Source: an archaeon
GTDB taxonomy: Archaea > Undinarchaeota > Undinarchaeia > Undinarchaeales > JBDRKL01
Direction of reading: 5' to 3'
NCBI GenBank assembly: GCA_043814055.1
Contig: JBDRKL010000010.1
Location: 85,433-149,432 of the forward strand
Length of the DNA stretch: 64,000 nt
Under the pieces are notes generated by a model. That model saw nothing but the letters and a program-made list of their open reading frames with translations. It was not told the origin of the DNA and searched no databases. Below are positions 52,974-56,266 of the stretch, in pieces (the first letter of the stretch is position 1; each line of letters starts with the position of its first letter). Position numbers and translations under genes: made by a program.

Positions 52974-53048
52974 GCCTCGGTGGCTCAGTGGTAGAGCGGC
53001 TGTCCTGTAAACAGCAGGTCGGGAGTTCAATTCTCCCCCGGGGCTCCA
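52974..53048 (+). tRNA. tRNA-Thr(UGU), C at position 33
   Basis: GCTGT-CCTGTAA-ACAGC, U73, CCA. Confidence 0.9.
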
Positions 53049-53051
53049 AAT

Positions 53052-53219
53052 CAAACTTTTTAGTAAAAAAGTTTGATCAAAAACAAAAAGAAGAAACACA
53101 TTAACCTTTAACCCACAACAAACTTTTTAGTAAAAAAGTTTGATCAAAAACAAAAAGAAGAAACACATTAACCTTTAACCCACAACAAACTTTTTAGTAA
53201 AAAAGTTTGATCAAAAACA
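53052..53219 (+). repeat. 2.5 x 67-bp tandem repeat (palindromic core plus stranded gene end)
   Basis: CAAACTTTTTAGTAAAAAAGTTTGATCAAAAACA at 53052, 53119, 53186. Confidence 0.9.
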
Positions 53220-53239
53220 CAATACACCTCTGGCACAAT

Positions 53240-53701
53240 TTACCCCCCTTTCACCCACATTAAAATAGCCCAGCCGAGTTTTGAGAAGATTAAGTAATTA
53301 AATAATATAGAGAGCATTGCAAACTTGACCAGGCGGAACCAGTTTGAGCCCATAAACATCCAGATTATGTTTGAGACAATGTTGTAGCCAATCACAATCA
53401 TCATTGAGTTGAGCAGGAAGTTCTTCGCGGTTATGTCAAAGAACGTTGCGGCGAAGAGCGTGCCTGCAAGAGTTATGCCCATAATGAACAATCCCTGGAT
53501 TTCATAAGGGAACAGGACGAACGAGATTATCAGGATTGAGATTGCGAAGAGGAAACCCCACAGCGGGCCGAATGCGTAGGTCAGAATCAGGCCGAATGAG
53601 AGCCAGATGCCGACGCCCTGCATCTCAAAGCGGCGCATCCAAAACTCAAGGAAGCCGCCAATCATCACGAGCCCGATGAGCGCGAGGAGTTGGTAAAACA
53701 T
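53240..53701 (-). CDS. multi-pass membrane protein
   Basis: About 6 hydrophobic helices, FGP.WG motif reminiscent of ECF S components. Confidence 0.7.
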   Translation of the reverse strand: MFYQLLALIGLVMIGGFLEFWMRRFEMQGVGIWLSFGLILTYAFGPLWGFLFAISILIISFVLFPYEIQGLFIMGITLAGTLFAATFFDITAKNFLLNSMMIVIGYNIVSNIIWMFMGSNWFRLVKFAMLSILFNYLIFSKLGWAILMWVKGG

Positions 53702-53781: not shown

Positions 53782-54004
53782 GGGCTCGTGGCTCAAGCTG
53801 GTAGAGCATCTGACTCTTAATCAGAGGGTTGAGGGTTCAAATCTCCGCCGCTGCGGACACAATGAAACGCCAGAGATGTAATAAAATTGCTGGCGATTCA
53901 TTGTGAGGATAGCAGGGGGCTTGGTGAAAACCAAGCATTCAGCCTTCGGCTGAAGCCCCCCTATAAAATGCAGCTTCGGACTGAAAATCCCTTCGGGCCC
54001 ACCA
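53782..54004 (+). tRNA. tRNA-Lys(CUU) with 146-nt T-loop intron at 59/60 (53842-53987)
   Basis: TCTGA-CTCTTAA-TCAGA; BHB TTCA-AA|T ... TGAA-AA|T; GAGGG/CCCTT; CCA. Confidence 0.88.
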
Positions 54005-54127
54005 ATCACAATATCGGGGCTTCGGCAACAGCCGAATGCCCTCGGCCTACAAACACGCAAAGCGTGTTGTACAACCCGCTGTCGCGGGTTCGTACCTCCG
54101 CGGCCAGGCGGAGCTTCGGGCCCACCA
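54005..54127 (+). mobile_element. hairpin array ending in a copy of the tRNA-Lys 3' end
   Basis: CTTCGGGCCCACCA at 54114-54127 identical to 53991-54004. Confidence 0.7.
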
Positions 54128-54162
54128 AAACCTTATAATAAACAATAGCTAACTTCATACTC

Positions 54163-55452
54163 ATGAACTGGAAAACCCTTGCAGAAACAGACCCTGAAAT
54201 TTTGAAAGCGCTGAACGGCGAAGTCACTAGGGAGAACGAGGGGCTTGAGCTTATCCCGTCGGAGAATTACATCAGCAAGGCAGTGATGACCGCGATGGGC
54301 TCGATTCTTAACAACAAATATTCAGAGGGCTACCCAGGCAAGCGCTACTACGGCGGACAGGAATTCACGGACATTGTAGAAAACCTTGCGATTGACAGGG
54401 CAAAGAAACTCTTCGGCGCTGAGCACGCAAATGTCCAGCCTTACTCAGGAAGCCCAGCGAACCTCGCGGCTTACCTCGCGGTTATGAAACTAGGGGACAC
54501 GCTGATGGGCATGGCGCTTCCGATGGGCGGACACTTGACACACGGTCACTCAGTGAGCGCAACAGGCAAATTGTTCAAAGCAGTGCAATATGGAGTTGAT
54601 GAAGAAACCCATTTGATTGACTACGATGCAGTTAGGAAACTTGCCCAAGAGCACAAGCCGCAGGTGATTGTCTCAGGCGCAACAGCGTATCCAAGAGAAT
54701 ATGATTTCAAGGAGTTCCACGCCATAGCTGAAGAAGTTGGAGCTTACTCAATGGTTGACATGGCGCACATCGCCGGCCTAATCGCAGCTGACGCGCACCA
54801 GAGTCCTTTCCCATTCACAGACATCATCACGACCACGACGCACAAGACACTGCGCGGGCCGAGAGGGGGGATGATACTTTGTAAACAGGAAGACCGATTG
54901 AAGGAGAAGTATCACGCAGAGTCCAAGTGGAACCTCGCAGAGCTGATTGACCGCTCAATATTCCCAGGACTTCAAGGCGGGCCACACGAGCACACAATCG
55001 CTGGGCTCGCAGTTGCGTTGCTTGAGGACTCCCAGCCCGAGTTCAAGAACTACGGCAAGCAAGTTGTGAAGAACGCGAAACACCTTGCTGAGAAATTAAT
55101 GGACTTTGGATTTGAGCTAATCACTGGCGGAACAGACAATCACTTGATTTTAATTGACCTCACGAACAAAGGCATTGCCGGCGGGGAGGCAGAGGCTGCG
55201 CTGGACAAGGCAGGCATCACAGTGAACAAGAACACAGTGCCTTACGACAAGCGCAAGCCATTTGACCCGTCGGGAATCCGGCTCGGAACTCCAGCACTCA
55301 CAACGCGCGGGATGAAAGAAGGCGAGATGGAGCAGGTCGCTGAGTTTATGAACAAGGCGATTGCAAATGTTAAAGATGAGTCTGCACTCGGCAAGATTAA
55401 GGCAGAAGTTAAAGAGTTGTGTGACAAGTTCCCGTTGTATGAATTGTATTAG
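54163..55452 (+). CDS. glyA: serine hydroxymethyltransferase (bacterial-like)
   Basis: LIPSEN, EGYPGKRYYGG, TTTTHKTLRGPRGG, SGIRLGTPA. Confidence 0.97.
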   Translation: MNWKTLAETDPEILKALNGEVTRENEGLELIPSENYISKAVMTAMGSILNNKYSEGYPGKRYYGGQEFTDIVENLAIDRAKKLFGAEHANVQPYSGSPANLAAYLAVMKLGDTLMGMALPMGGHLTHGHSVSATGKLFKAVQYGVDEETHLIDYDAVRKLAQEHKPQVIVSGATAYPREYDFKEFHAIAEEVGAYSMVDMAHIAGLIAADAHQSPFPFTDIITTTTHKTLRGPRGGMILCKQEDRLKEKYHAESKWNLAELIDRSIFPGLQGGPHEHTIAGLAVALLEDSQPEFKNYGKQVVKNAKHLAEKLMDFGFELITGGTDNHLILIDLTNKGIAGGEAEAALDKAGITVNKNTVPYDKRKPFDPSGIRLGTPALTTRGMKEGEMEQVAEFMNKAIANVKDESALGKIKAEVKELCDKFPLYELY

Positions 55453-55499
55453 TAGCTCCACGAAAACTTTAAATACCCAGCAACTTACTTGATTGCACT

Positions 55500-55733
55500 A
55501 TGACCAATCAGCGACCATTTGATTCTTTGAATGAAGCTATCGGCAGCGAAGTCATATTGAGACTTAAGGAAGGCGGCGAAGTTCGCGGCACCCTTAAGGC
55601 TTTTGACGTGCACATGAATCTGGTGTTGGACAAGGCAGAGGAAGTCTGCGAGGATACCACCAAGAGGTTCGGCATGTTAATCGTGCGCGGCGACAATATA
55701 ATCTTCGTTTCACCGAACAAGAACGGCGAGTAA
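55500..55733 (+). CDS. Sm-like (LSm) protein
   Basis: RP...L, G.L..FD.HMNLVL, RGDNI; upstream of L37e. Confidence 0.94.
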   Translation: MTNQRPFDSLNEAIGSEVILRLKEGGEVRGTLKAFDVHMNLVLDKAEEVCEDTTKRFGMLIVRGDNIIFVSPNKNGE

Positions 55734-55738
55734 AGACG

Positions 55739-55867
55739 ATGAGCAAGGGAACAACCTTTTTCTGTGCGCCTTCGGCGCTTGAAAAACGTTGACGAAAAAG
55801 AAATTTTGCAAAGCAAAATTTCAGCCGCTCACGCGGCAATTCATAGGTAAAAAATGAGCAAGGGAAC
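55739..55867 (+). mobile_element. hairpin insertion with duplicated rpl37e start
   Basis: ATGAGCAAGGGAAC at 55739 and 55854; AACCTTTTT...AAAAACGTTGACGAAAAAG between. Confidence 0.72.
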
Positions 55868-56021
55868 TCCAAGTTTTGGAAAGCATAACAAGAAGACGCA
55901 CATCCGCTGCAGGCGATGCGGCAGGGGCGCGTACCACAAGACCAAGGCGGTCTGCGCTAGCTGCGGCTACGGCAGGTCAGCCAAGCTGAGGAGCTTTGCG
56001 TGGGGAACGTTGGGGAGGTAA
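55854..56021 (+). CDS. rpl37e: 50S ribosomal protein L37e (absent from ORF track)
   Basis: [26 protein letters not shown].....CASCGYG. Confidence 0.97.
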
Positions 56022-56026
56022 AAAAA

Positions 56027-56266
56027 ATGGGTAAATACAGACTATTTTCAGTTATTTCAAAAGGAGTCAATACTTATGTGCATATGCAGGCAGCAAAGGA
56101 AGTTTTTAAAGGTAGCATATTAAGCAAAAGATATAAAATCATTGAGGAAGCTGGCGAGGTCGTTATTGTTACATACCAAATAACAAATCTTAATACTGAA
56201 CTTCGCGAAATCATTAAATACTTGTATAAAAATGGAGCAGAAGGAGTAAGTGTGTTTCAGCACTAA
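56027..56266 (+). CDS. hypothetical protein (AT-rich)
   Basis: GGAGGT RBS; fills the L37e-S8e gap. Confidence 0.6.
   Translation: MGKYRLFSVISKGVNTYVHMQAAKEVFKGSILSKRYKIIEEAGEVVIVTYQITNLNTELREIIKYLYKNGAEGVSVFQH

Follow-up and report, generated by a model that had tools for sequence, protein, structure and literature searches.

A small hairpin element inserted at the start of the ribosomal protein gene rpl37e in an archaeon of the order Undinarchaeales

Background

MITE-like non-autonomous intergenic repeats that enter transcripts include the Correia elements of Neisseria, the ERIC sequences and the Rickettsia palindromic elements. The element analyzed here, which lies at the start of the gene for ribosomal protein L37e in an archaeal genome, belongs to a family that resembles these repeats in being short, multi-copy, free of protein genes and endowed with hairpins, in sparing the genes it lands beside or inside, and in its capacity to bring expression signals. 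It departs from them in several respects. The rpl37e insert lacks inverted repeats at both ends, its palindrome being located at one end alone; the flanking repeats of the family are variable (13-58 nt), whereas the target duplication of a MITE is short and fixed; and the hairpin modules of the family are shuffled between copies, with no matching transposase found in the genome. A different MITE-like family, associated with C/D sRNAs, is described for Pyrobaculum (PMC6009581).

The REP/PATE-type hairpin repeats are moved by Y1 transposases of the IS200/IS605 type and are not known to generate target duplications. Like them, the present family combines a conserved hairpin with a short conserved motif that follows it, and is found in both bacteria and archaea. 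In contrast, it has target duplications, and no match to Y1_Tnp or TnpB was found in this genome. Casposons and other integration systems of the Cas1 family generate target duplications of 14-15 bp. The 14-nt repeat at rpl37e and the location of other family members at tRNA 3' ends are reminiscent of these systems, but Cas1 was not detected in the genome, the element lacks terminal inverted repeats, and the family repeats extend from 13 to 58 nt.

For archaeal tRNA introns, transposition between tRNA genes has been proposed, reportedly by Fujishima and colleagues in 2010. Members of the present family occupy the canonical intron position both in this genome and in four other archaea, and one of them forms a textbook BHB motif. 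The rpl37e copy, however, shows no BHB in a strict scan and is inserted in the start of a protein gene between the two copies of a target duplication, whereas introns are not known to have such a duplication.

A further parallel is offered by the att duplications of integrative plasmids and viruses at tRNA and protein genes of archaea, where a direct repeat of a gene end flanks the foreign DNA and the gene remains intact. In the tRNA-Thr model from Caldiarchaeum (PMC3293823), a partial gene duplication (attL/attR) results from an integrative element. One family copy elsewhere in our genome, at C4:51166-51400, shares this organization, its 34-nt core being identical and the arm after it being recoded by synonymous changes only. 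Unlike an integrative element, the rpl37e insert of ~100 nt carries no integrase, there is no Phage_integrase match in the genome, and the targets of the family are numerous and unrelated in sequence, in contrast to the single target of a site-specific recombinase. Finally, the rpl37e leader region has no counterpart among the curated structured RNA leaders, as no covariance model of Rfam matched positions 55400-56100 at E values up to 1.

MITE-like repeats, tRNA introns, att duplications and casposons are the closest known kinds, and from each of them the element departs in at least one of the defining features tested; a search of the openly searchable full-text literature, with subscription journals outside its reach, returned no description of the family or its 16-mers. 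The insertion event itself is real and well supported, and the element is viewed here as a variant of the small non-autonomous repeats. The novel aspects of this work are the rpl37e case with its comparison to relatives, a negative splicing test, and the analysis of an upstream ORF and a ribosome-binding site (RBS); to these are added a rule on the position of repeat edges at ATG codons, a repeat with exclusively synonymous recoding, and the spread of the palindrome across domains.

Results and discussion

Duplicated start of rpl37e and anatomy of the insert

The analyzed stretch of DNA (hereafter, the window) comprises 64,000 nt of contig JBDRKL010000010.1 (positions 85,433 to 149,432) from assembly GCA_043814055.1, a 980-kb genome that consists of 14 contigs and is 82% complete. 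Within the window, the gene for an LSm (Sm-like) protein precedes rpl37e (Table 1). The stop codon of the former is separated by five bases, AGACG, from the 14-mer ATGAGCAAGGGAAC, and the same 14-mer opens the 55-aa L37e ORF at a start-to-start distance of 115 nt. When up to one mismatch is allowed, the window contains exactly these two matches, against a chance expectation of 0.03, and two or more matches were obtained in none of 100 shuffled sequences. These results bear out the first-pass annotation of this DNA, which had noted a duplicated rpl37e start, once 5 nt after the Sm stop and once 115 nt further on, and had placed a family palindrome, two additional hairpins and an AGGT between the two copies. 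All three hairpins are present in the predicted fold of positions 55725-55885, and the AGGT is found at 55845-55848. The boundary of the insert is ambiguous by one base, since C55752 can be taken either to close the repeat or to open the palindrome; microhomology at the junctions does not exceed 1 nt.

Table 1. Features of the LSm-rpl37e junction (positions in the window)
Feature	Position	Strand	Basis
LSm (Sm-like) protein gene, 77 aa, stop codon TAA at 55731-55733	55500..55733	+	ORF; Pfam LSM, E 2.8e-21
Left repeat copy (ATG + 11 nt), a relic of the ancestral start of L37e, 5 nt past the LSm stop	55739..55752	+	sequence; position fits the 6-nt spacers of relatives L003-L005
Upstream ORF arising from the event, opened by the ATG of the relic and extending into the palindrome, 17 codons, MSKGTTFFCAPSALEKR*, TGA at 55790-55792	55739..55792	+	translation
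Module P1, arms CAACCTTTTT / AAAAACGTTG enclosing GCGCC-TTC-GGCGC, then ACGAAAAA; T5 in the left arm	55752..55799	+	fold
Inserted element, 101 nt, unique as a whole, made from family modules	55753..55853	+	blastn, full-length self-match only
Hairpin H2, perfect 10-bp stem, 3-nt loop	55800..55822	+	fold
Hairpin H3, GCCGC-TCAC-GCGGC, 5 bp	55824..55837	+	fold
Element tail AATTCATAGGTAAAAA, with AGGT at 55845-55848 (-9 to -6 from the ATG)	55838..55853	+	sequence
Right copy of the duplication, working rpl37e start	55854..55867	+	sequence
Intact rpl37e, 55 aa, N-terminus like that of relatives	55854..56021	+	ORF; Pfam Ribosomal_L37e, E 2e-23

In the RNA fold of 55725-55885, the left arm of P1 (55752-55761) is paired with the right arm (55782-55791) around an inner hairpin at 55767-55779. 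The fold energy of this region is only moderately better than that of shuffled sequences on the plus strand (z -1.94, a value equalled in 10 of 200 shuffles) and reaches z -2.83 on the minus strand, where none of 200 shuffles was as good. The insert starts with CAACCTTTTT and finishes with AGGTAAAAA, and the inverted partner of its left arm is located 30 nt inside rather than at the terminus. Several parts of the insert recur elsewhere in the genome. The 18-mer AAAAACGTTGACGAAAAA of P1 is present as an exact match in four genome loci, and the inner P1 hairpin is identical to the third hairpin of a copy at C4:51120-51170. The tail CATAGGTAAAAA closely resembles the tail CATTGGTAAAAA of another copy, which splits the 5' end of a tRNA-Glu gene, with the common stretch CATWGGTAAAAA; the tail is therefore a part of the element. 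Downstream of the junction, an 88-aa ORF of no known function occupies positions 56000-56266 between rpl37e and the S8e gene, and overlaps the end of rpl37e if its first GTG is used.

The hairpin family in this genome

The palindrome had been assigned to a family from inspection of the window alone, and a genome-wide search supports this assignment. A regular expression composed of CAAMCTTTTT, a variable centre and AAAAAGYTTGAYCAAAAA, which represents the palindrome with its 3' extension, gave 37 matches in the 980-kb genome, of which ~34 were judged convincing and 9 are located within the window; the probable chance matches at C5:3486, C9:61253 and C10:26553 have long odd centres. Nine copies begin 0-4 nt past a tRNA 3' end, and three are found inside the introns of tRNA-Gly(GCC), tRNA-Val(TAC) and tRNA-Met(CAT), where the first base of the element coincides with the canonical splice site. 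Other copies split gene ends between direct repeats. The flanking repeats in this genome measure 14, 14, 20, 17, 18, 34, 48 and 58 nt, while many copies have no repeat of at least 9 nt.

Six full-length copies were folded, and all of them have the organization palindrome, hairpin, hairpin, with differing stem sequences. According to these folds, the two hairpins are kept in structure and not in sequence, and the distribution of modules among the copies indicates that hairpins have been shuffled between them. This family of small, non-coding, multi-copy elements joins phenomena that are usually kept apart, namely gene-end duplications, cassettes that trail tRNA genes, and canonical tRNA introns.

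Three additional arrangements were observed in or near the window. Just outside it, at C10:83335-83483, the tRNA-Ile(GAT) gene is enclosed by two opposite palindrome modules, one at its first base and one at its CCA end. At window positions 53046-53246, three tandem 67-nt units directly follow tRNA-Thr(TGT), each of them opening with a minimal palindrome module. At 53991-54128, four GC-rich hairpins, with no palindrome module, are flanked by two copies of CTTCGGGCCCACCAA at a distance of 123 nt; this repeat looks like the 3' end of an RNA gene, and ARAGORN detects no tRNA there.

Probable consequences for L37e expression

Our reading of the locus, which taken as a whole we consider to be probably correct, is that a hairpin element was inserted into rpl37e with duplication of the gene start, that the resulting spacer is retained in the mRNA, and that L37e initiates at the AGGT borne by the element. 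A modular non-coding element comprising P1, two hairpins and an A-rich tail entered rpl37e at a point 13-14 nt from its first base. Everything between the ATG and this point was duplicated; the downstream copy keeps the gene intact and the upstream copy is left as a relic. The insert would be co-transcribed with LSm and stay in the mRNA as a 120-nt structured spacer. Ribosomes finishing LSm could then restart at the relic AUG to make a 17-codon peptide that ends inside the palindrome, and L37e, uncoupled from LSm, would initiate alone at the AGGT-N5-AUG provided by the element tail.

The stop codon of the upstream ORF lies 61 nt ahead of the functional L37e ATG, and the two reading frames differ; the old coupling to LSm may now feed a dead-end peptide. 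With respect to initiation at the downstream copy, the first-pass annotation had proposed that the insert supplies an RBS-like site, and this proposal stands at the level of sequence. Among 847 ORFs of at least 150 aa, the upstream AGGT starts have a peak at position -12 (24 cases) and number 11 at position -9, compared with background counts of 1-5 between -30 and -17, a distribution that argues for the use of Shine-Dalgarno-like sites in a minority of genes of this organism. The AGGT of the element is located at -9, within the enriched positions, which makes the element tail a plausible new initiation site, albeit through a match of only 4 nt. Evidence against its use is that the otherwise near-identical tail of the tRNA-Glu copy reads TGGT and stands ahead of a tRNA, where no RBS is needed. 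On balance, L37e probably initiates on its own at the element-borne AGGT.

The relationship between the two genes could also be explained by transcriptional uncoupling, where the T5 of the left palindrome arm terminates the LSm RNA and a promoter within the insert drives an L37e mRNA with a short leader. The location of P1 directly after nine tRNA genes, where an oligo-T terminator is expected, is compatible with this explanation, and the nine relatives with LSm-L37e spacers of 20-71 nt often have TTTATAAA- or TTTAAATA-like boxes in them, from which it follows that L37e can own a promoter in this group. We nevertheless consider it improbable. The insert has no A/T box like those of the relatives, its sole A/T-rich stretches being the arms of H2, and the same T5-bearing arm is located inside the introns of tRNA-Met(CAT) and tRNA-Gly(GCC), which are necessarily transcribed; thus, T5 need not halt RNA polymerase, although the run could terminate a share of transcripts. 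Given that the T5 arm is read through in tRNA introns and that no A/T box is found in the insert, co-transcription with LSm is the simpler reading. A scan for sigma-70 promoters and intrinsic terminators, which applies bacterial models to an archaeal host, returned a single terminator-like match that corresponds to H2 on the minus strand. The idea that the repeats start at the 5' ends of leaderless mRNAs was also considered and rejected as a poor fit for rpl37e. This gene lies 5 nt after LSm, and ~37 nt separate the sole TATA-like stretch (~55697-55704) from the relic ATG downstream of it, a distance too great to place a transcript start at this ATG.

Splicing of the insert from the mRNA, which had been raised as a possibility in the first-pass annotation, found no support. 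According to this explanation, the insert is an archaeal BHB intron that is excised by the tRNA splicing endonuclease and RtcB, and the 14-nt repeat restores the compact ancestral mRNA. Its attraction comes from the tRNA genes, as the same family forms the introns of tRNA-Gly(GCC), tRNA-Val(TAC) and tRNA-Met(CAT) with its first base at the canonical splice site, and in tRNA-Gly the first bases of the element, GACCT, constitute the inner helix of a textbook hBHBh' motif. Moreover, P1 starts at position 38 of intron-bearing tRNAs in four other archaea, and the genes for EndA (C6:30540-30794) and RtcB are present in the genome. However, a strict BHB scan of positions 55668-55928 found no motif that brackets the rpl37e insert. 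It gave only one match, with outer helices of 3 bp, the use of which would delete the L37e start, and at least one match was obtained in 35% of shuffled sequences. The scan recovered its positive control, tRNA-Gly(GCC), exactly, and missed the real introns of tRNA-Val, tRNA-Met, tRNA-Trp and others, so that more relaxed motifs may have escaped it. In addition, the tail of the rpl37e copy has no GGGTTG-type segment, which in the Gly and Met introns pairs with the 5' end of the element. Excision is therefore very unlikely in our estimation, and the insert most likely stays in the mRNA, as is expected from the strict scan.

The rpl37e event is best read as a tolerated selfish insertion rather than a regulatory device. 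An essential ribosomal protein gene that is normally translation-coupled would have survived the rebuilding of its start by a selfish element, with coupling being replaced by a 120-nt structured spacer, an upstream mini-ORF and an element-borne RBS-like site. The case exemplifies how, in a compact archaeal genome, a leader and an upstream ORF can be gained in a single step.

The LSm-L37e spacer in related genomes

The closest genomes compared were 12 members of the same order, none of them from the same genus or family. Thirty LSm-L37e loci were fetched, of which 28, including our own, contain both genes, leaving 27 other loci for comparison. Their spacers measure -4 to 12 nt in 15 loci, 20-71 nt in nine, and 162, 513 and 561 nt in the remaining three, and none resembles the 120-nt spacer of our genome. 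In the same-order relatives L003-L005, the junction reads TGA|AGAACG|ATG or TGA|GGAAAG|ATG, which closely resembles the TAA|AGACG|ATG of the relic. Metagenome loci were additionally collected through the LSm protein (n=80, the best relative having 77% identity); 51 of them have both genes in line and could be measured, with spacers of 6-51 nt, and the P1 palindrome is present in none of the 80. In total, a spacer of this type is found in none of 78 other LSm-L37e loci, most of which have spacers of at most 12 nt. Together with the position of the relic, these data indicate that the 120-nt spacer is not a conserved leader and that the upstream ATG marks the ancestral start site. They agree with the earlier view of the upstream copy as occupying the usual Sm-L37e position and of the event as an insertion that duplicated the gene start, a comparable spacer being present in 0/27 genome loci and 0/51 measurable metagenome loci; the comparison of spacer lengths in relatives, which had been suggested as the means to distinguish an insertion from a shared ancient leader, is decided in favor of the former.

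The same junction has been modified elsewhere. In one species of a related genus (L024, genome G002), the spacer is 66 nt long, contains a different TTTTT/AAAAA palindrome and is accompanied by a changed LSm C-terminus, whereas two other species of this genus (L020, G010; L022, G006) have a spacer of 2 nt. The occurrence of 66-nt and 2-nt spacers within one genus suggests that the LSm-L37e junction was hit independently. In a distant archaeon (L014, G017), the 162-nt spacer contains two clear hairpins of unrelated sequence.

The same comparison bears on the idea that the spacer has long been maintained by selection as a regulatory leader of L37e, such as an autoregulatory binding site for a ribosomal protein, and that the repeat is incidental. 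Structured leaders are frequent in ribosomal protein operons, a general precedent for this idea, and the hairpins of the insert are well formed. Against it stand the absence of the spacer from all 78 other loci and of any Rfam match, the presence of its modules at ~34 unrelated places in the genome, and the exact repeat of the gene start in the ancestral position. We consider this explanation to be largely refuted and barely credible.

A contig of 151 nt from a sediment sequencing run spans positions 55631-55781, from the end of LSm through the relic and 29 nt into the insert, with 9 differences and 0 gaps; it indicates that a somewhat diverged population also carries the left junction, and no more than that. 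That the repeat is a product of misassembly or chance, as could be suspected of an assembly of 14 contigs and 82% completeness, is the least credible explanation of all, given the chance expectation of 0.03 matches, the gapless crossing of the left junction by an independent contig from another run, and the recurrence of the architecture at other genes and in other genomes.

How the family may move

Searches of the 82%-complete genome with the profiles of Cas1, RVT_1 (reverse transcriptase), Phage_integrase, Y1_Tnp and TnpB (TNB domain) gave no match. In control searches, Cas1 was found in seven genomes and Phage_integrase (Xer-like, six-frame) in 14 of 14 reference genomes. The Rep_1, Y2_Tnp and Viral_Rep profiles had no match in the genome, and their controls had none either. 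A link to IS200/IS605 elements was rejected: apart from the absence of Y1_Tnp and TnpB here, Y1_Tnp is present in three and absent from two of five other P1-rich genomes, and at the loci around the Y1_Tnp genes of these three genomes no P1 was found within ~1.5 kb.

The repeats themselves are informative about the process. Their length varies from 13 to 58 nt across the family, with values of 22, 25, 38 and 39 nt in the relatives. Repeats were detected at five protein-gene starts, namely those of rpl37e, of a class-II amidotransferase-like gene (C2:8801) and of three genes from two other genomes of the order. In every case the ATG forms the left edge of the repeat, as only 0, 0, 1, 0 and 1 bases upstream of it are identical. 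An intact gene requires the repeat to include the ATG and not to begin there, so selection alone does not demand an edge at this position. Simple staggered-cut insertion explains neither the varying length of the repeats nor their start at the ATG.

Two tRNA-Leu loci provide a further clue. At tRNA-Leu(TAA) (C10:103944-104073) and tRNA-Leu(GAG) (C9:11409-11539), the decayed relics of the tRNA end differ at only 2 of 27 positions, and the right half of the cassette together with this relic is nearly identical between the two loci, while the palindrome parts differ. The relic at tRNA-Leu(TAA) is closer to that of the GAG locus than to its own tRNA, and the preceding hairpin is common to both; the likeness of relic and hairpin across the loci indicates that cassette and relic were copied as one unit.

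The third clue comes from C4:51166-51400, outside the window, where a family copy is flanked on each side by the last 19 codons and the stop codon of a 636-aa gene. This repeat is identical over its first 34 nt. Its final eight codons plus the stop contain nine base differences, which affect six of these codons and the stop; all are synonymous, including TAA versus TAG, so that both copies encode MYSLDTYAMKNLEAIRLR*. On this pattern, the repeat resembles an att-type core joined to a foreign arm rather than a decaying duplication.

The variable lengths, the ATG edges, the co-copying at the tRNA-Leu loci and the synonymous recoding argue against ordinary transposition with staggered cuts. They suggest movement through a recombination or copying process in which gene ends would serve as the homology, perhaps via small circular intermediates. 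Our best guess is that the mover consists of host enzymes or of an enzyme supplied in trans and that it acts at the DNA level, as opposed to classical cut-and-paste transposition. The mechanistic puzzle lies in the combination of variable repeats, ATG edges in five of five cases, recoding that is only synonymous, and no visible mobilizing enzyme.

A broader interpretation can be put forward tentatively, although we regard it as rather unlikely. The rpl37e insert may be the product of an undescribed, transposase-free process that places cassettes exactly at functional gene boundaries and copies the neighboring gene end, where such boundaries may comprise start and stop codons, position +1 and the CCA end of tRNAs, and the canonical splice site. 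Canonical tRNA introns across Archaea would then derive from the same cassettes, and the palindrome would be a cross-domain mobile signal for a widely shared enzyme or host pathway.

Wider distribution of the palindrome

Within the order, four further genomes contain the strict palindrome pattern, which flanks gene-start or tRNA-start duplications there and occurs in one tRNA intron; gene-start duplications with the same palindrome were found in three same-order genomes. At least 121 stretches with the palindrome were identified in a collection of species-representative genomes, 80 loci of which were classified by their record titles. Archaeal loci account for 39 of these 80 (46 copies) and belong to Methanosarcina, other methanogens, several DPANN groups and one member of the Thermoproteota. 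The 41 bacterial loci (43 copies) are mostly from Clostridia. Among the loci listed, the carriers in Clostridia include both MAGs and isolates, and the Thermoproteota carrier is one MAG. Only archaeal copies are tied to tRNA genes among the 80 loci classified from the at least 121 stretches, with four inside tRNA introns and five abutting tRNA ends, the bacterial counts being 0 for both. Repeats of at least 14 nt accompany 15 archaeal loci, some of them as tandem arrays, and one bacterial locus.

The module itself is preserved almost letter for letter in distant groups, in the form CAAR-CTTTTT, a short centre, AAAAAG-YTTG and then AYCAAAAA. At almost all loci the palindrome is completed by the four bases that precede the pattern, though the pattern did not require it. 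The palindrome was also detected in 16 stretches from viral contigs, mostly very AT-rich and binned as giant-virus MAGs; on inspection of these stretches, no obvious autonomous partner was seen. In Methanosarcina isolates, palindromes form tandem arrays with a period of 83 nt, and the presence of the module in this cultivable genus means that its mobility may be testable there.
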